The notes under the pieces are model-generated. The model did not search any database. It was not told the DNA's origin and worked only from the letters and a program-made list of their open reading frames with translations. This document shows, piece by piece, positions 2,913-29,757 of a stretch of 32,983 nucleotides of DNA. Position 1 is the first letter of the stretch. Each line of letters starts with the position of its first letter. Origin of the DNA: Chiloscyllium plagiosum (taxonomy: Eukaryota). The position numbers were made by a program, and so were the translations under genes. The stretch covers positions 1 through 32,983 of the forward strand of contig NW_025213803.1 in the NCBI RefSeq assembly GCF_004010195.1, read 5' to 3'.

Positions 2913-3402
2913 AGAACATTAGAACATAGAAGAATACAGCGCAGTACAGGCCCTTCGGCCCTCGATGTTGCGCCGATCCAAGCCCACCTAACCTACACTA
3001 GCCCACTATCCTCCATATGCCTATCTAATGCCCGCTTAAATGCCCATAATGAGGGAGAGTCCACCACTGCTACTGGCAGGGCATTCCATGAACTCACGAC
3101 TCGCTGAGTAAAGAACCTACCCCTAACATCTGTCCTATACCTACCCCCCCCTAATTTAAAGCTATGCCCCCTTGTAATAGCTGACTCCATACGTGGAAAA
3201 AGATTCTCACTGTCGACCCTATCTAAACCTTTAATCATCTTATACACCTCTATCAAGTCACCCCTAAACCTTCTTTTCTCCAATGAAAACAACCCCAAGT
3301 GCCTCAGCCTTTCCTCATACGATCTTCCTACCATACCAGGCAACATCCTGGTAAACCTCCTCTGCACCCGTTCCAGTGCCTCCACATCCTTCCTATAGTA
3401 TG
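2913..3402 (-). mobile_element. CR1/HER1-type LINE 3' end (ORF2 C-terminus, 3' UTR, TTCTATG-like tail), apparently young
   Basis: Uninterrupted YYRKDVEALERVQRRFTRMLPGM..LGLFSLEKRRFRGDLIEVYKMIKG..TRGHSFKL..FFTQRVVSSWNALP..FKRALD to the stop at 2993; tail at 2913-2932. Confidence 0.93.
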
Positions 3403-4618
3403 AGTTGACATGATTCAAAGCAAAACATTCATCCCCCTTTAAATCCTGGAGTAAGGCAAGTCCTCCATCCAGTAGTTTCTCCTCGGGCATTTTCACACGA
3501 GGTCTGATTCCTCTGCCTCTACCTAATTTGGAGTGATAATAGCCTGCCACTTGTGCCTGGAGAGTCTTGACCAAAACTCCTCTTCTTCAGGTGGTAGCTG
3601 TTTCGAGGCTGTGACATATGCTGTGTGCATTTTATCATGAGATCCTCTGCAATGCGCTGAATCCACGGGTTATAACAGCTTTGGATGTTCTGAGGGTCAA
3701 GATAGGTTTTGCTTCCGCCTTGTTTGCAATGTTGTAGCTTTCATGTGTTCCACGTACCTGTTCAGGACCACATTTCCTAACCAAACTTCGTTCATCATGG
3801 GACCTGACCCCTCATCCACCATGCCTTTTACACATGCAGGAGCATTCCTTGGTCTCAAAACTAAACTTCGTCCTATGAAGTAAATAGCCTTTCTGATTCA
3901 GAGGGTCCTGAATCCAGCATTGGCATTCCTGAAGTTGTTTCACCACCACCACCACCGCATCCCCACCCCTCCTGGTTTGGGAAGATCCGATTTAACCTGG
4001 TGCAAGGCCTTGTCCCCATTGGATATTCTACTAGATTTGTCCCTGTAGGTGTATGGGGTGGACCTGGACTCAATAGGAACAGTGGCAGTATGTTGTCGAG
4101 TGAAGCTGTAGGCTGTTTCTTCAAGCCTGCCCTGAAAGTTTGGACTGTGCTTTTTTTCCACATGACCACTTGGCGATGGATGGTATGGAGCTGTCCTTCC
4201 ATACCAAATGTCATGCGACATTAGGAAATACACAGAATATTTGTTGGTAAATAATGGCCTGTTGTCTGTGACCAACACCTCATGGAGTCTGTGTATTGCA
4301 AAAGATGCTTGCAGCTTGTCAGTCATCACCCTGTCATTGACAAATGAACTGTGCGCTCGTCCAAACACTATTAGAGGGTGTCCACTATGAGTAAAAACAT
4401 AAAACCCATGAAAGGATGGTACAGTCGACCTGCAACCACGTCCAGGGTTTAGCCAGCCATTCCCGTGAATGTGGAGGAGCTGTTGCTGGTGACGTTTATG
4501 TATTGTTGGCACTCGAGGCTCTGCCCAATCAACGTGGCTATGTCAGTATTCAATCCTGGTCACCAGACATAAATTCTCGCCAATATCTTCATTCCTGATG
4601 TAATTCAGCCAGTCTCAG
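3403..4618 (-). mobile_element. Decayed Ty3/Gypsy LTR-retrotransposon fragment: integrase, polypurine tract and start of the 3' LTR
   Basis: GMKILARIYVW*PGLNTDI..C (HHCC region), EWLAKPWTWLQVD..FMGFMFLLIVD and VLVTDNRPLFTN..RTAPYHPSPSGHVE. PPT-like AAAGGGGGATGAA at 3440-3428 is followed by TGT at 3427-3425. Confidence 0.85.
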
Positions 4619-4845
4619 GTCACACGACCCTTTCCTCCCTGCCTGACGGGCACATACTTATCAAGGACACTCAATAGTTGCTCCTTGAACAAGCTCCACA
4701 TATCAATTACACCCTTGCCTTGAAGCTTACTTTTCCAGGCCACACATCCTAAGTCATGCCTCACAGCATCATAATTTCCCTGCCCCCATCTATAACTCTT
4801 GCCCTGTAGTGCACACTTATCCCTCTCCATCACTAGAGTAAAGTA
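4619..4845 (-). mobile_element. CR1/HER1-type LINE ORF2 internal fragment (endonuclease-RT linker)
   Basis: Open frame FTLVMERDK..SYRWGQGNYDAVRHDLGCVAW..DMWSLFKEQLLSVLDKYVPVRQGG, typical of CR1 ORF2 just after the APE domain. Confidence 0.85.
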
Positions 4846-6345
4846 CTTCTTCCTTGTATTACTCTTGACGACCCATTTATAAACAGCCTACCTCCTTCAT
4901 ATAGGAGAATATCCTTTAAGTCTGCTCTTGTTCTGGTCTGATACTCGATAATATCTAAGCAGTCATGTTCTACTTCTCGCATGTCTAGGGGTTCTCTCTT
5001 CCACATGAAGGTGGCTGAGTTCAAACAAGCATCTGTTGTTAACACCAGGTCGTCTCTCTCCATAAGGGTAGCTTCATATTTTAGAGTTCTTGAGTCCGTC
5101 AACCATCTTCCTGCCTTTTGAGTTAACACAGTTCTGACTTGATGGGGAGTGCTAACAACCAGCGCTCCTCCGAAGGTTAGTTTGTGGCTCTCCTCTACTA
5201 GAATGGCAGTGGCCGCGACCGCCTGTATGCACTCAGGCCAACCTCTCGAGACAGGGTCTAAAATTTTGTACAGGAAGGCTATGGGTTGTTTCTTTCCTCC
5301 TGTTTTCTGGGTTAGCATTCCTACTGCTGCTCTATTATTTACTGTCACAAAAAGGTGGAAGGGTTTCTCAAGGGAAGGGAGGGCTAACACGGGAGCTTGC
5401 ATCAAGCTTCGTTTAATTCCTGATATCCCTCCTTTTCTTTTTCTGTCCATTGTAGTTTTTCATGTTCAGATTCTGTCAATTTGTAATATAACCCCTTCGT
5501 TTTCTGGGCGTATGCTTCTATCCATAATCTACAATAGCCCACTAGCTCCAAGAACTTCTGTAACTCCCTTTTGGTGGTCAGTAGGGGTAGTTCTGTTATT
5601 CCTTTAATCCTTTTGGGGTTAATGCGCCTAGTGCCTTCACTGATGAGGTGTCCTTAAGTATTTTACCTCTCTTTTTCTACATATTGTAACTTATTCTTGG
5701 ATACTTTTAGACGCTGTTTCCCTAGGAAATCTAACAGTCTGTTGGTAGCCTCGCTCACCTCATTTCCGTTTAGTCCAGATACAAGTAGATCATCCACATA
5801 TTGTAACAGTATCGTCCTCTTGGGCATTGTAAATTGTTCAAGGACTTGCTCCAGTACTTGTCCAAATAAATTAGGTGATTCCGTGAATCCCTGGGGAAGT
5901 ATCGTCCAGTGGAACTGATGTTTTGTACCCGTGTATGGATCCTCCCATTCGAAACCAAACATGTCACGGCTTTCTGTGCTAGAGGACAAGCCCAGAATGC
6001 ATCTTTTAAATCTATCACACTAAACCAGCGATGGTCACACAGTATTTTACCTAACAAAGTATATGGATTGGGTACCACCGGGTGCCGTGTTCGAACCAAT
6101 TGACTTACTGCTCTAAGATCCTGCACCAGACGATAGGTTCCATCTGGTTTGCGGACAGGCAATATGAGTATTAAAGGGTGACATGCATGGTTCCAATAAC
6201 CCAGTTTTTATCAACGAATCTATAACTGGTCATAGAACTATTTTATTTTCTTGTTTCAGCGTAATCCTTATCGGATCAATATTTAACCGACCTGGATTAC
6301 CATCTTTTGCCCATACATCAGGATGGATTTGTTTTTCATCACTCG
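4846..6345 (-). pseudogene. pol: ERV reverse transcriptase, connection domain and RNase H N-terminus, frameshifted
   Basis: IHPDVWAK..; SPFNTHILPVRKPDGTYRLVQDLRAV..VVPNPYTLL..WFSVIDLKDAFW; WTILPQGFTESPNLFGQ; YVDD at 5789-5800; QAPVLALPSLEKPFHLFV..LDPVSRGWPECIQAVAA; LFINGSSRVIQGR. Confidence 0.96.
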
Positions 6346-6718
6346 GTGTTAACATTGGCCATTTTTACAGTCCCATTATGATTTTCTACCTCTATTTTTA
6401 GGCCTAATTTAATAATCAAATCTCTACCCAGTAAATTGCTCCTGAGGTCAGGGATATATAAGAACTGTCCTGTTATTTCTTCACTACTTCCCGTAATTAA
6501 AGTTGGCTCAAAAATGGGTACTAAAAATGCTTCATCTTTTTTACTCCAAAAACCCAGATTCTTTGGTTAGTTAATTTAATGCCAGTAGGTCTAAAACTTA
6601 GGAATGACCGGGCCGCTCCCGTATCTACCAAAAATACTGTCTCCTCCCCTTTTGGTCCCACCTTTAGATTTACCAAGGGTTCCTGGTGGGTCTCAAGAGG
6701 AAGGAACCCCTGACTCCT
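6346..6718 (-). pseudogene. pro: ERV aspartic protease, in frame after the gag TAG
   Basis: *RSQGFLPLETHQEPLVNLKVGPKGEETVFLVDTGAARSFL with catalytic DTG at 6617-6625; a decayed NLLGRDL motif near 6420-6440. Confidence 0.9.
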
Positions 6719-6721
6719 CTA
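6657..6721 (-). promoter_or_regulatory. gag-pro stop-codon readthrough signal (UAG, 8-nt spacer, H-type pseudoknot)
   Basis: TAG AGGAGTCA GGGGTTCCT TCCTCTTGAGA CCCACC AGGAACCCT TGGTAAATCTAAA GGTGGG. Stem 1 is GGGGTTCCT/AGGAACCCT and stem 2 is CCCACC/GGTGGG, the same layout as the MuLV signal. Confidence 0.8.
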
Positions 6722-7905
6722 AACTTCATCTAAGGTCATTAGGGAAACCGCTTCCCTTTCTCGTGCTAATTCCAGACATTCCCGTTTAAAATGCCTTACT
6801 TTCCAGCAATGATAACACCCTGCCTGTTGCTTCCTTTCTCGGGTATCTGACCCTTGTCTTTCGTATCCTCCCCTATCCCTTGATCCCATTCTTCTTTTTG
6901 TCATTTCTTCTACTGCTGCCACCATCATTTTGGCTTTCTGTTTCTGCTTCTCATCTTCCCTTTACATATACACTTTCTGTGCCTCACGTAACAGTTCTTC
7001 CATCTGTCTTTCACTCCATCCATCTAATTTCTGTAATTTCTTTTGTATGTCTGGCCATGATTTAGTTACAAACTGGACATTTAAGAGCCCCTGTGCTACC
7101 GGATTATCGGGATCCATTCCCGAATACTTCCTTGTGGCCTCCTTGAGCCTTTGAAGAAATGCAGAAGGGGTTTCATCCTTCTCTTGTCGTACTCAAAGGG
7201 CTTAACAAAGTCTTGTTATCTAGGTACTGCCTCTTTAATTCCTAATATTACCATTTCTCAGAGATCTCGCATTGACTCCCTATCATCTCTGTCATTATTT
7301 TTCCAATGTGGGTCAACATTTGAGAATTTATGCTAAACTTTTCACTTTCTTTTTGAAGACCCTAACTTCACTGATGGTTAAGGGAGTATTTACATATCCG
7401 ATTTCATCTTCCCCAATCGGAACCTCTCTTAAGGGACATAATTTTACATTTTACATTATCTCTGCCCCTCCTTTATGTGTGGTGGCTCGAGTGATTCTGA
7501 GCCCCCCCACCCCCCCCCCAGGTTCCGCATCTTTTAGCTCAGAGTCCGTTCCCCTTTCTATGTCTGGACTCGGTTCTACTTCAGGAGCTGTAGGCTCATT
7601 CCGGGGAGTAGTATATGGGGGCGGCAAACACATTAAGGGATCCCATTGTGGCTTCCCATTTTCATTCTTTTTCTTTTGTTCTTTCGCTAATTCCTCCGTA
7701 TTCATGGGACATAATTTTACTCCTGCGCTCCCAATCCAACAAGCCGCATAATCGGACTCTTTTTGACTGTAGGTCCTTTTCGATTGATATATATATTAAA
7801 ATCTTGACACAGCCAATCCTCATCAGACCCATACTTAGGCCAAAAAAAGAATACCAGGCGCCTTAATACTTTCTCTAGTCCAAACGAAACAACAATATTT
7901 TATCA
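6719..7905 (-). pseudogene. gag: ERV gag (MA partial, late domains, CA with internal deletion, single-knuckle NC)
   Basis: IKYCCFVWT..WPKYGSDEDWLCQ; LPPPYTTPRNEPTAP; GYVNTPLTISEVR; MHR QEKDETPSAFLQRLKEA; FVTKSWPDIQKKLQK; CYHCWKVRHFKREC at 6776-6817; TAG at 6721-6719. Confidence 0.92.
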
Positions 7906-8188
7906 ACATTTAATTGTAAGAAAAGAACTGCTTTGAACATGTTGATTCTCTTTTGTCTTTTCTATTTCAACAATATTCATCACTGTACAATAATGACAAT
8001 TATTATAATTCCTTTATGTACCAAATGTCATTGACTGCATCATTTGTTCACTTTCATGCTCACTTTCATTATCTATTAACTTTCTTCCAAATTCTGACAC
8101 AAATGTCAGAACTCTGATCACAATATTAATCATCTAAATTAATATAATGTGTCTCTATGAGGAAACCATGTGATAGAAATTCATATTT

Positions 8189-8510
8189 TAGATTAGATTA
8201 GATTAGATTACTTTACAGTGTGGAAACAGGCCCTTCGGCCCAACAAGTCCACACCGACCCGCCGAAGCGCAAACCACCCATACCCCTACATTTACCCCTT
8301 ACCTAACACTACGGACAATTTAGCATGGCCAATTCACCTGACCTGCACATCTTTGGACTGTGGGAGGAAACCAGAGCACCCGGAGGAAACCCACGCAGAC
8401 ACGGGGAGAATGTGCAAACTCCACACAGTCAGTCGCCTGAGGCGGGAATTGAACCCGGGTCTCTGGCGCTGCGAGGCAGCAGTGCTAACCACTGTGCCAC
8501 CATGCCGCCC
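8189..8510 (-). mobile_element. HE1-like V-SINE, full length, with 7-bp target-site duplication
   Basis: A and B boxes, V core and (TCTAA)n tail; CATATTT at 8182-8188 and 8513-8519. Confidence 0.94.
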
Positions 8511-11235: not shown

Positions 11236-11642
11236 ANNNNNNNNNNNNNNNNNNNNNNNNNNNNNNNNNNNNNNNNNNNNNNNNNNNNNNNNNNNNNNNN
11301 NNNNNNNNNNNNNNNNNNNNNNNNNNNNNNNNNNNNNNNNNNNNNNNNNNNNNNNNNNNNNNNNNNNNNNNNNNNNNNNNNNNNNNNNNNNNNNNNNNNN
11401 NNNNNNNNNNNNNNNNNNNNNNNNNNNNNNNNNNNNNNNNNNNNNNNNNNNNNNNNNNNNNNNNNNNNNNNNNNNNNNNNNNNNNNNNNNNNNNNNNNNN
11501 NNNNNNNNNNNNNNNNNNNNNNNNNNNNNNNNNNNNNNNNNNNNNNNNNNNNNNNNNNNNNNNNNNNNNNNNNNNNNNNNNNNNNNNNNNNNNNNNNNNN
11601 NNNNNNNNNNNNNNNNNNNNNNNNNNNNNNNNNNNNNNNNNN
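11236..11642. other. Assembly gap
   Basis: Run of N. Confidence 1.
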
Positions 11643-14478: not shown

Positions 14479-15251
14479 NNNNNNNNNNNNNNNNNNNNNN
14501 NNNNNNNNNNNNNNNNNNNNNNNNNNNNNNNNNNNNNNNNNNNNNNNNNNNNNNNNNNNNNNNNNNNNNNNNNNNNNNNNNNNNNNNNNNNNNNNNNNNN
14601 NNNNNNNNNNNNNNNNNNNNNNNNNNNNNNNNNNNNNNNNNNNNNNNNNNNNNNNNNNNNNNNNNNNNNNNNNNNNNNNNNNNNNNNNNNNNNNNNNNNN
14701 NNNNNNNNNNNNNNNNNNNNNNNNNNNNNNNNNNNNNNNNNNNNNNNNNNNNNNNNNNNNNNNNNNNNNNNNNNNNNNNNNNNNNNNNNNNNNNNNNNNN
14801 NNNNNNNNNNNNNNNNNNNNNNNNNNNNNNNNNNNNNNNNNNNNNNNNNNNNNNNNNNNNNNNNNNNNNNNNNNNNNNNNNNNNNNNNNNNNNNNNNNNN
14901 NNNNNNNNNNNNNNNNNNNNNNNNNNNNNNNNNNNNNNNNNNNNNNNNNNNNNNNNNNNNNNNNNNNNNNNNNNNNNNNNNNNNNNNNNNNNNNNNNNNN
15001 NNNNNNNNNNNNNNNNNNNNNNNNNNNNNNNNNNNNNNNNNNNNNNNNNNNNNNNNNNNNNNNNNNNNNNNNNNNNNNNNNNNNNNNNNNNNNNNNNNNN
15101 NNNNNNNNNNNNNNNNNNNNNNNNNNNNNNNNNNNNNNNNNNNNNNNNNNNNNNNNNNNNNNNNNNNNNNNNNNNNNNNNNNNNNNNNNNNNNNNNNNNN
15201 NNNNNNNNNNNNNNNNNNNNNNNNNNNNNNNNNNNNNNNNNNNNNNNNNNN
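14479..15251. other. Assembly gap
   Basis: Run of N. Confidence 1.
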
Positions 15252-24464: not shown

Positions 24465-25263
24465 NNNNNNNNNNNNNNNNNNNNNNNNNNNNNNNNNNNN
24501 NNNNNNNNNNNNNNNNNNNNNNNNNNNNNNNNNNNNNNNNNNNNNNNNNNNNNNNNNNNNNNNNNNNNNNNNNNNNNNNNNNNNNNNNNNNNNNNNNNNN
24601 NNNNNNNNNNNNNNNNNNNNNNNNNNNNNNNNNNNNNNNNNNNNNNNNNNNNNNNNNNNNNNNNNNNNNNNNNNNNNNNNNNNNNNNNNNNNNNNNNNNN
24701 NNNNNNNNNNNNNNNNNNNNNNNNNNNNNNNNNNNNNNNNNNNNNNNNNNNNNNNNNNNNNNNNNNNNNNNNNNNNNNNNNNNNNNNNNNNNNNNNNNNN
24801 NNNNNNNNNNNNNNNNNNNNNNNNNNNNNNNNNNNNNNNNNNNNNNNNNNNNNNNNNNNNNNNNNNNNNNNNNNNNNNNNNNNNNNNNNNNNNNNNNNNN
24901 NNNNNNNNNNNNNNNNNNNNNNNNNNNNNNNNNNNNNNNNNNNNNNNNNNNNNNNNNNNNNNNNNNNNNNNNNNNNNNNNNNNNNNNNNNNNNNNNNNNN
25001 NNNNNNNNNNNNNNNNNNNNNNNNNNNNNNNNNNNNNNNNNNNNNNNNNNNNNNNNNNNNNNNNNNNNNNNNNNNNNNNNNNNNNNNNNNNNNNNNNNNN
25101 NNNNNNNNNNNNNNNNNNNNNNNNNNNNNNNNNNNNNNNNNNNNNNNNNNNNNNNNNNNNNNNNNNNNNNNNNNNNNNNNNNNNNNNNNNNNNNNNNNNN
25201 NNNNNNNNNNNNNNNNNNNNNNNNNNNNNNNNNNNNNNNNNNNNNNNNNNNNNNNNNNNNNNN
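24465..25263. other. Assembly gap
   Basis: Run of N. Confidence 1.
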
Positions 25264-26199
25264 NTATCGCAGATGCTCCACAGTGAGTCTACTCACAACT
25301 CCAACTCTGAAAAGCAGTTTCCCAATAACTGCAGATGGGAACCCTTCCTGCACACATAGCCGCCAGGGACACTGGAAGCATCCCTTATTTCCCACATTGT
25401 GCAAGAGGAGCACACCACGGCTCTGAGGTGCCCTGTCACAACATCTCTCTACATTCATCTAGTTACTCCCATTAAAAGAATTTAAATGAGTGAGCAATCT
25501 TCCTTCACTTTAAACATGTCCATTAGAATAACAAAAAAAATCTTTACTTAAGCTGATATGTCATACTTTAAAAACTTAAATACTCCGCAGGTATCACTGA
25601 CAAATTGGCTGTTCCCATTGGGACTGTGAATTTCTGAAAGGCCTGAACTAAAACGGAGTTTCAGCTTCACCTTCTCCCTGTCTCACCTCACTATTTACAC
25701 CCAACTCCAAAACACTCTCATTGAGCCAAACAGCACTTTTAGTGCAGCCCTGCCATTTTCATTGTCTGCTCACACCTACACTTCCCTCAGCCTCCTGTAC
25801 TGTTCCAATGCATCTCAATGGGAGCTCAGGACCAGTATTGCATCTTTCAATTCAGCCCTTTGTAACCCCAGAGTCAAAATGGACCAGCAGTTTCTGAATG
25901 AACAGACAGTTGTCAGAATCTGGAAAGTTCCACCTGAAATGGTGCTGGAATTTGAGTCCACAAGGAATTTCAATGAGAAATTTGCAGAGAATTGGAAGTA
26001 GGGAGTTTACAGATTAACATTATAAAGTGGATGATTGAGACTAAATCTGAAAGTTCCTGCAAAAAGACGAGGTGTAATTTGGATAAATCTGTGCTCCCTC
26101 TCAAGCCAATACCTCCTTCCACAGCTGCAGGGCCAAGAATTGAACACATACCCCAAGAGTGATCCAACCATGGACTTGAACATCTTTCTGCTTTTGGTT

Positions 26200-26560
26200 T
26201 GACAAAAATATTGAAGATATTTTCCCACAGACAGAACAGACAAACCTTTTTCCTTCCACAGTTTAATGCCAATGATATTCCGATCCTGATGACTCCGCTG
26301 ACTGTAGAAGCTTGTTTATTGAGATCCCAGTCTCAATTATTCTCAATTAATATCCTATAAAATGAATTCACAAAACAAAGCTCACAGTCAGTGCAAGAAC
26401 ACTTCTCTTGGTATGTGTTTGATGTGTAAATGCTCCTCTTCAAATCACCCCTCCCCCACCCAGGAAGAGGACACGTGCATGCTCCTTGTGGTACATTACC
26501 CTAAATAAAGATGGCAGCCATAACCCAGGTCCTCACTGCCTGAGGCCCAAGCCATCTTCC
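26200..26560 (-). pseudogene. Zinc-finger gene 5' remnant, copy 1 (promoter-like motifs, acceptor, first finger truncated by CR1 sequence)
   Basis: YY1-like AAGATGGC (26508-26515) and GCCATCTT (26551-26558); acceptor TTTTATAG (AG 26356-26355); TVEGKRFVCSVCGKISS at ~26260-26210. Confidence 0.6.
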
Positions 26561-27749
26561 CCTTTGCTGCAAACGTGGGACCAAGAGTTTCTAATTCAGA
26601 CTAACGACCTGCACAGAGTGTAACTAAACCCTCCCAGTCTACACTGATACATTTCATCCGGTTTCTGCTGCCACTTTCCCCTTTCCGCCTCCTGAACACA
26701 CCAAGGGTCATCATGGGTCCAGTGACCCTTCCTCAGAACCGATGACAGCTGGGAAAATTAGAATCCCTTCAGGAAACAGGCCCTTCGGCACAACAATTCC
26801 ACACTCACCCTCCGAAGTTAATCCCACCCAGACCCATTCCCCTATCCTATTACTCTCCATTTCCCCAGACTAATGCACATCCCTGAACACGACGAGAAAT
26901 TTAGCTGGGCTAATTCACTTGACCTACACATCTTTGGACTGCAGGAGATAGGGGTTAAAGAGTAACTAATAGGTGGGGACAGAGCCCAAAGAGAGACAGG
27001 AACATTTGGAAAGACAAAGGAGTGGGAAGTTGGAAAGCTGTTAATGGAGGAGACAGGAACCTTCTAGCATCTCAGTGGCGGTGGTGGAAATAGTGTCTGA
27101 TGATCTACATTGTGCCTGCAAAAAAGATCCTGAGCTTCCAGTTGCCTGCTCTTTAACACACAAGACTGTTCCCTGTCCAACATTTCTGTCTCATGCTTAC
27201 TGCAGTGTTCCAGTGAAGCTTGATGCAAGCTGGAAGAACACTTCATAACATACAAAATGGCTTCCTATTTCAAGGACTGCAATTTCCCCTCACACGCCTG
27301 TCATTTTCATTGTCTGCTCACACCTGCACTGCCCCAGCCTCCTGTACTGTTCCAATGCATCTCAATGGGAGCTCAGGACCAGCACCTCATCTTTCAATTC
27401 AGCCCTTTGTAACCCCAGAGTCAAAATGGACTTCAGCAGTTTCTGAATGAACAGACAGTTGTCAGAATCTGGAACATTCCATCTGAAATGGTGCTGGAAT
27501 TTGAGTCCACAAGGAATTTCAATGAGAAATTTGCAGAGAATTGAAAGTAGGGAGTTTACAGATTAACATTATAAAGTGGATGATTGAGACTAAATCTGAC
27601 AGTTCCTGCAAAGAGACGAGGTGTAATTTGGATAAATCTGTGCTCTCTCTCAGGCCAATGCCTCCTTCCACAGCTGCAGGGCCAAGAATTGAACACATAC
27701 CCAAAGGGTGACCCAGCCATGGACTTGAACATCTTTCTGCTTTTGGCTT

Positions 27750-28127
27750 GACAAAAATATTGAAGATATTTTCCCACAGACAGAACAGACAAACCTTTCT
27801 CGTTCCACAGTTTAATGCCAATGATGTTCAGATCCTGATGACTCCGCTAACTATAGAAACTTGTTTTTTGAGATCCCAGTCTCAATTATTCTCAATTAAT
27901 ATCCTATAAAATTAATTCACAAAACAAAGCTCACAGTCAGTGCAAGATGAATAGTGAAGGCAAATACTTCTCTTGGTATGTGTTTGATGTGTAAATGCTC
28001 CTCTTCAAATCACCCCTCCCCCACCCAGGAAGAGGACACAAGCATGCTCCTTGCGGTACATTACCCTAAATAAAGATGGCAGCCATAACCCAGGTCCTCT
28101 CACTGCCTGAGGCCCAAGCCATCTTCC
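27750..28127 (-). pseudogene. Zinc-finger gene 5' remnant, copy 2
   Basis: Same elements: AAGATGGC 28073-28080, GCCATCTT 28118-28125, acceptor AG 27905-27904, RFVCSVCGK at ~27796-27770. Confidence 0.6.
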
Positions 28128-28659
28128 CCTTTGCTGCAAACGTGGGACCAAGAGTTTCTAATTCAGACTAACGACCTGCACAGAGTGTAACTAAACCCTC
28201 CCAGTCTACACTGATACATTTCATCCGATTTCTGCTGCCACTTTCCCCTTTCCGCCTCCTGCACACACCAAGGGTCATCATGGGTCCAGTGACCCTTCCT
28301 CAGAACCGATGACAGCTGGGAAAATTAGAATCCCTTCAGGAAACAGGCCCTTCAGCACAACAATTCCACACCCACACTCCGAAGTTAATCCCACCCAGAC
28401 CCATTCCCCTATCCTATTACTCTCCATTTCCCCAGACTAATGCACATCCCTGAACACTACGAGAAATTTAGCTGGGCTAATTCACTTGACCTACACATCT
28501 TTGGACTGCAGGAGATAGGGGTTAAAGAGTAACTAATAGGTGGGGACAGAGCCCAAAGAGAGACAGGAACACTTGGAAAGACAAAGGAGTGGGAAGTTGG
28601 AAAGCTGTTAATGGAGGAGACAGGAACCTTCTAGCATCTCAGTGGCGGTGGTGGAAATG

Positions 28660-29174: not shown

Positions 29175-29757
29175 CTTCCCCTCACCTCCATCCAAGGCAC
29201 CACAGGATCCTCCCACATCCAACATAGATTTCCCTGCCCACCCAAACACCTCACCTATTGTGTCCTTTGCTCTCAGGATGCCAAATTGTGGAATATTTCA
29301 CTTCCCCTCACCTCCATCCAAGGCACCACAGGATCCTCCCACATCCAGCATAGATTTCCCTGCCCACCCAAACACCTCAGCTTTAGATTAGATTAGATTA
29401 GATTAGATTACTTACAGTGTGGAAACAGGCCCTTCGGCCCAACAAATCCACACCGCCCCGCCGAAGCGCAACCCACCCATATCCCTACATGTACACCTTA
29501 CCTAACACTACGGGCAATTTAGCATGGCCAATTCACCTGACCTGCACATCTTTGGACTGTGGGAGGAAACCGGAGCACCCAGAGGAAACCCACGCAGACA
29601 CGGGGAGAACGTGCAAACTCCACACAGTCAGTCGCCTGAGGCGGGAATTGAACCCGGGTCTCTGGCGCTGTGAGGCAGCAGTGCCAACCACTGTGCCACC
29701 GTGCCACCCACCTATTGTGTCCTTTGCTCTCAGGATGCCAAATTGTGGAATATTTCA
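29175..29757 (+). repeat. 126-bp tandem duplication inside the PLE; second copy split by a SINE
   Basis: 29175-29300 is repeated as 29301-29379 plus 29710-29757. Confidence 0.95.
29383..29709 (-). mobile_element. HE1-like V-SINE, full length
   Basis: Same structure as 975-1307 and 8189-8510, with a (TCTAA)n tail. Confidence 0.94.

Follow-up and report, generated by a model that had tools for sequence, protein, structure and literature searches.

The window, by which is meant the whole stretch of 32,983 nucleotides of Chiloscyllium plagiosum DNA that was analysed, carries on its minus strand a broken endogenous retrovirus (ERV) in which a gag UAG sits in frame between a Gag_p30 domain (E 5e-17) with its zinc knuckle and an aspartyl protease with the motif DTGA. 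Support for the protease comes from Pfam RVP (E 0.0017, below the cut-off of that family) and from the XMRV protease (E 6e-4). The nearest named homologues of the Gag are from bamboo sharks (Chiloscyllium), with identity up to 92%. There is a single gag-pro junction in the window, none other having been found. The features of the provirus that matter here, and of the putative recoding element just 3' of the UAG, are the following.

6722..7906, minus strand: broken gag, from the end of matrix to capsid, plus zinc-knuckle nucleocapsid; several stops and one frame change (tblastn with related Gag, Pfam Gag_p30)
6719..6721, minus strand: gag UAG, in frame with protease (sequence reading)
6711..6718, minus strand: spacer, 8 nt, purine-rich (sequence reading)
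6702..6710, minus strand: stem 1, 5' arm, 9 nt (sequence, related copies, gammaretroviral loci)
6691..6701, minus strand: loop 1, 11 nt; its letters vary, its length is constant in the readable related copies
6685..6690, minus strand: stem 2, 5' arm, 6 nt (sequence, related copies)
6676..6684, minus strand: stem 1, 3' arm, 9 nt; contains the GAACCC anchor common to gammaretroviruses
6663..6675, minus strand: loop 2, 13 nt (comparison with MoMLV, anchored on GAACCC)
6657..6662, minus strand: stem 2, 3' arm, 6 nt; 4 nt earlier than its gammaretroviral counterpart
6640..6652, minus strand: purine tract able, in the window copy, to pair with loop 1 in a rival nested hairpin
6527..6718, minus strand: N-terminal part of protease with the DTGA motif; frame closed at 6523
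4833..6526, minus strand: remaining protease, RT and connection domain; stops and frame changes

Stem 1 has 8 Watson-Crick pairs and a terminal G-U, with two further pairs possible that reach into the spacer, and stem 2 (CCCACC/GGTGGG) has 6 Watson-Crick pairs. As read from the sequence the topology is that of an H-type pseudoknot with its stems stacked without a gap; that both stems form at the same time is a prediction. The first-pass annotation had described the UAG, spacer, stems and loops in just this way, and every part is where it had placed them. Its word ‘intact’ fits the stems and neither the first base of the spacer, at which the window deviates from 92-100% of the depth of aligned related copies, nor the provirus. 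Gag also has an in-frame stop at 6964-6962, at which translation would end before the UAG is reached; this copy does nothing now. There are more stops and frame changes across gag and pol, and other repeats have been inserted in pol and env.

No LTR pair was recognised in the window. A repeat pair of 97% identity, 981-1280 and 8184-8483, was considered for that role and rejected, since the repeat occurs a third time, at 29383, and env is interrupted by one of the copies. The sequences at 981-1297, 8184-8500 and 29383-29682, together with parts at 26886 and 28453, belong to one short repeat, tRNA-like at its head and ending in a simple repeat, which we take to be a shark SINE; two 97%-alike copies of it flank the provirus in LTR-like fashion. 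Approximately 1.9 kb of foreign sequence (2920-4850) interrupts the RNase H region of pol. The insert gave no Pfam match, and presumably comprises, by eye, a LINE-like RT end (~3460-3000) and, from a different element, an integrase-like fragment (~4540-3940). Of integrase no more than the end gives a match (2286-2440), its core apparently having been deleted, and in 1-1900 broken env-like frames, two pieces of which are without a Pfam match, run off the start of the window. Elsewhere, a tandem duplication of ~1.55 kb with 95-98% identity (25785-28514) lies beside a run of Ns and may be an assembly feature, and the long ORFs at the N runs 11237-11642, 14479-15251 and 24465-25264 are artefacts.

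Gammaretroviral likeness and the HERV-IP/ADP-like lineage

Placed by similarity and not by an RT tree, the provirus resembles a class I ERV nearer to HERV-IP/ADP than to MuLV. Its Gag p30 is accompanied by one zinc knuckle, and its protease N-terminus, GQG-linker-HQEPLINLxVGP-x-FLVD[TS]G, matches by eye those of HERV-IP and HERV-ADP, to which it is closer than to the other class I groups displayed in supplement 3 of PMC4724089. Identity across the junction is 42-54% to five HERV-IP/ADP-like proteins versus 27-36% to gammaretroviral loci, the stretches compared being in part longer for the latter. The HERVIPADP supergroup has been tied to the avian ChiRV1 (in a passage of PMC4724089), and a lemon-shark ERV has been described as close to a human ERV (in a passage of PMC4422223).

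For comparison with gammaretroviruses a set of 26 loci was assembled, of which 8 have a retroviral protease in frame and were measured, 16 are chance matches, and 2 (L013 and L022) are gammaretrovirus-like but out of frame and were omitted. All eight measured loci have a GARCCC anchor at +28, and the 3' arm of their 7-bp stem 2 spans +52 to +58. The anchor of the window is at +37, so that 9 extra nucleotides precede it, and these make the long loop 1. From the anchor to the start of the stem-2 3' arm the distance is 24 nt in 8/8 of the gammaretroviral loci versus 20 nt in the window, from which it follows that stem 2 has been re-paired and not compensated position by position. The core of stem 1, alone of the two stems, is by its letters homologous with that of gammaretroviruses: the GGGTTC/GAACCC core of the window recurs in one locus (L027), two others (L018, L024) have a C-G version of one of its pairs, and a core without a bulge is common to the window and the BaEV, FeLV and GaLV knots (Rfam RF01092, GP_knot2; these same three loci). 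The covariation with MuLV that had been proposed for both stems is thus retained for part of stem 1, the homologous core, and given up for stem 2 with its displaced 3' arm.

The similarity to MoMLV (Rfam RF01073, GP_knot1; its knot structure is PDB 2LC8, as cited in the accessible text of PMC13517186) extends to an in-frame UAG, an 8-nt purine-rich spacer ending GUCA, two gapless stacked stems, GARCCC in the 3' arm of stem 1 and a possible extension of stem 1 by pairing of spacer with loop 2. Of the spacer positions conserved in MoMLV (1, 2, 5, 6, 7 and 8) the window matches 5/6, the exception in this copy being the first, which is conserved and important in gammaretroviruses according to a section of PMC13517186; of the conserved loop-2 positions, aligned on GAACCC, it matches 4/5. 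Unlike MoMLV, the window has an 11-nt loop 1 where MoMLV has 1 nt, a 13-nt loop 2 where MoMLV has 18, no bulge in stem 1, and a stem 2 of 6 pairs, including one A-U, with its 3' arm 4 nt earlier. The first base of its loop 1 is not A, so there is no counterpart of the A (A17) of the MoMLV base triple.

In a published summary of gammaretroviral elements (PMC3835772, accessible part) the sizes are spacer 8, stem 1 8-9, stem 2 6-7, loop 1 1-2 and loop 2 17-19, and the view of the first-pass annotation that the long loop 1 is a structural variant is borne out by 11 nt set against 1-2, just as its MuLV-like layout recurs in the in-frame UAG, the spacer, the stacked stems and the conserved stem 1. 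A search of 6500-6900 with Rfam had GP_knot1 and GP_knot2, both gag/pol readthrough families, as its top two matches and exactly at the element, with scores of 16.6 and 13.9 bits that are far below the gathering scores of 67.7 and 80. What the window has in common with these families is the UAG between nucleocapsid and DTGA, the spacer and a 9-bp stem 1 on GARCCC; it departs from them in loop 1, in loop 2 and in the gathering score. As for stem 2, its six pairs are present with the 3' arm at a non-homologous place and no covariation was seen. The element, then, resembles the MoMLV signal and is not a strict member of GP_knot1/2. The epsilon- and fish retroviruses WDSV, SnRV, SSSV and ZFERV likewise have aquatic hosts and a same-frame gag-pro junction with presumed readthrough. 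WDSV and snakehead retrovirus (SnRV) are held, in the accessible part of PMC3835772, to read through with a pseudoknot undetected there; unlike theirs, the window element is gamma-like.

Is the long loop a peculiarity of a shark virus? In eight in-frame junction proteins of the lineage, taken from 210 proteins, QG is separated from EP (or the equivalent) by 8-12 residues in 8/8 cases, versus 5 in 8/8 of the gammaretroviral loci. The loop is not such a peculiarity, the longer linker being common to HERV-IP/ADP-like proteins, and the long loop 1 seems, by extension from protein to RNA, to be a trait of the whole virus lineage. Seven of the 8 proteins have S/T/P before H/Y/Q and 7/8 have K/E/Q-V-G, residues whose codons could supply the letters of stem 2, and this pattern gives indirect support for a stem 2 across the lineage. 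A further protein, P0162, when read by eye in a shifted frame, fits both arms of stem 1, the 5' arm of stem 2 and the same loop length.

Related copies, folding and chance

Four runs of contigs, from organisms A, B, C and D (104, 97, 20 and 4 contigs, respectively), were aligned to the window. The contigs are at least 80% alike, the copies are not independent of one another, and the counts of variants, which are mostly unphased, rest on 40 of 73 variant rows. Among those 40 of 73 rows, the places that vary are 7/11 in loop 1, 3/18 in stem 1, 0/12 in stem 2, 2/8 in the spacer, 2/13 in loop 2, 14/37 in the downstream protease and 10/28 in the upstream gag. The CCCACC/GGTGGG arms are thus without a variant in those rows, in keeping with the first-pass annotation. 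Third codon positions, counted over the same 40 of 73 rows, vary at 1/10 in the stems versus 13/23 in the flanks (Fisher p=0.02). All 3 of the stem-1 variants are compatible with pairing. Two of the variable places, 6702 and 6684, are stem-1 partners, both at second codon positions, and one contig has a compensatory change: record 17 of X18 has both changed, as matched via its depth of 15.7 and the distance to its end. This double change substitutes two residues in the N-terminus of the protease. It is a hint that RNA pairing here outweighs protein sequence.

In all four runs there are also loose ends, copies whose match to the window covers ~6655 to 6691 and whose protease beyond it is of another kind. 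Those with the other downstream protease diverge at 6654-6655, just where the 3' arm of stem 2 ends, and 4 loose-end rows run gap-free from 6692 or 6693 to the UAG with other letters in loop 1, so that loop 1 stays 11 nt long in this second subfamily. The 5' arm of stem 1 in the 4 in-register rows is identical to that of the window in 2 and has one mismatch in the other 2. The window itself departs from most of the aligned depth at 6696 and 6673. Summed contig depth is highest over the element, depth not being the same as copy number. Runs X16 and X18 are RNA by conjecture and consist of contigs, and so carry no information on transcription.

Beyond these runs, DNA related to the lineage was sought in viral contigs, with none confirmed, in metagenome contigs, where 9/280 stretches passed and all were unrelated zinc knuckles, and in prokaryote genomes (0/14; of 120 pattern loci, 0 had a protease context). 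Locus L010 was considered as a member of the second subfamily and rejected as a chance match, and a search for homologues with the protease only gave no matches.

On this evidence the element is probably, though well short of certainly, a fossil MuLV-like UAG readthrough pseudoknot, in a long-loop variant, of a HERV-IP/ADP-like class I shark ERV, its role in readthrough being a prediction. It is unlikely, to take first the alternative that survives best, that the signal consisted of the spacer, a stem-1 hairpin and conserved single-stranded letters, with the complementarity of stem 2 a by-product of protease T-H-Q and K-V-G. What gives this idea its standing is that stem 2 is known by invariance alone, there being no compensatory or double change in it among the 40 of 73 variant rows. 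Further, a stem 2 arises through codon choice alone with P=0.054, the third positions of loop 2 (0/4) are as invariant as those of stem 2 (0/4 as well, p=0.10, in the same 40 of 73 rows), and in early MoMLV work stem-2 changes did not always abolish readthrough (according to section 4.1.1 of PMC13517186). Those four invariant third positions also count for a real stem 2, however, as do the six Watson-Crick pairs stacked gapless on stem 1, the break of the other-protease copies exactly where its 3' arm ends, and the retention of S/T/P-H/Y-Q and K/E/Q-V-G while the remaining linker varies.

Nested folding of 6657-6721, by a program blind to pseudoknots, gave no unusual stability (z -0.05), and in nested ensembles, in which pseudoknots are not modelled, the probability of stem 1 was at most 0.13 and that of stem 2 was 0.79-1.0. 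With 17 added bases the nested minimum is a hairpin of -26.5 kcal/mol in which loop 1 pairs to 6652-6640, the stem-2 pairs being present at 0.998 and stem 1 at 0.0. The helices of the knot, scored as separate duplexes, are at -14.5 and -10.1, and going by such scores knot and extended hairpin may possibly be near in energy. The working fold might then have been the extended hairpin of stem 2 and the loop 1/6652-6640 helix, or a switch between hairpin and knot akin to the equilibrium of active and inactive conformers in MoMLV, in which the active one is minor (as described in a passage of PMC4178896). We consider this quite improbable, as the extra helix draws both its strands from the segments that differ most among related copies and that the second subfamily has exchanged for others, with stem 1 retained, and the program that favours the hairpin is unable to score its competitor.

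Knots with at least 9 pairs in stem 1 and at least 6 in stem 2, starting 4-12 nt after the stop, appeared in 11/2000 dinucleotide shuffles and 5/2000 protein-preserving codon draws; with looser limits (at least 7 and at least 5 pairs) the figures were 174/2000 and 84/2000. Among the 338 minus-strand TAGs of the window the sole knot with at least 8 and at least 6 pairs is the one at the gag UAG, and the 300 plus-strand TAGs have 1 match, at 6665, where the same stems appear in mirror image. The anatomy of the knot exceeds chance. That there was no selected RNA structure, with protein constraint and G/C-rich composition yielding both stems by accident, is highly improbable: each stem singly is not rare given the protein (P=0.08 for stem 1; that of stem 2 is given above) and nested z-scores are near zero, but the joint probability of both is ~0.004-0.006, they have the correct place and spacing, the variants are pairing-compatible, including the double amino-acid-changing pair, and the stem-1 core has its homologue in gammaretroviruses.

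Predicted readthrough in the once-active virus and beyond the MuLV clade

If the long-loop readthrough knot is accepted, ribosomes at the gag UAG of the once-active virus would have met an H-type pseudoknot 8 nt downstream, with a 9-bp stem 1, an 11-nt loop 1, a 6-bp stem 2 and a 13-nt loop 2, that favoured decoding over termination. A few percent of them would have inserted an amino acid and gone on to make Gag-Pro-Pol, as in MoMLV. Stimulation of readthrough is the most likely function, and its rate is a surmise by analogy: readthrough in MoMLV is 7-9%, with disruption of either stem causing a 27- to 65-fold loss (as reported in a passage of PMC4178896). The long loop 1 would have arisen from a linker three codons longer at the N-terminus of the protease, and the stem-2 partner would be 4 nt earlier because V-G-P is encoded in this lineage in place of the V-G-G that supplies the G-run of gammaretroviruses.

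Searches of open-access PMC and bioRxiv text turned up no account of a readthrough knot with a long loop in ERVs that are HERV-I-like or from sharks. There is no readthrough structure for the HERVIPADP group in the accessible text of the papers searched, and the accessible text of PMC3159437, PMC11262651, PMC4133949 and PMC6001957 has nothing on a long-loop variant. The cis-elements of readthrough retroviruses beyond the MuLV clade are described as unclear in a 2026 review (PMC13517186, in the accessible text of section 4.1.2); readthrough structure has so far been worked out for the MuLV clade alone. If a lineage found in sharks has a conserved knot, pseudoknot-driven readthrough would reach well beyond that clade. 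Are a one-nucleotide loop 1 and a pH-sensitive triple needed for it? A long-loop knot would give a natural test. How class I retroviruses are known to make Pol is left unchanged by the finding, and the window copy is dead.

A bolder thought, offered tentatively and with the odds against it, is that HERV-IP/ADP-like viruses, in hosts that range from sharks to mammals, have their own class of knot in which loop 1 folds as a third small hairpin, with readthrough dispensing with both the one-nucleotide loop and the protonated-A triple of MoMLV. Hints of this are that other versions of loop 1 are, by eye, C-rich and then G-rich, with 3 pairs closable, and that three runs show changes of matching depth at 6698 and 6693, which are possible partners. 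On the other side, loop 1 of the window folds to nothing (0.0 kcal/mol), two registers are required, 9-25% of random 11-mers close 3 pairs, and the linked changes at 6698 and 6693 are a single subfamily event.

The linker before the protease EP varies widely in human class I groups, that of HERV-E being short and those of HERV-T, HERV-W and HERV-IP longer (in the part of PMC4724089 that displays them), and with such variable linkers other readthrough signals that have a long loop or lack a knot may be widespread beyond the MuLV clade.
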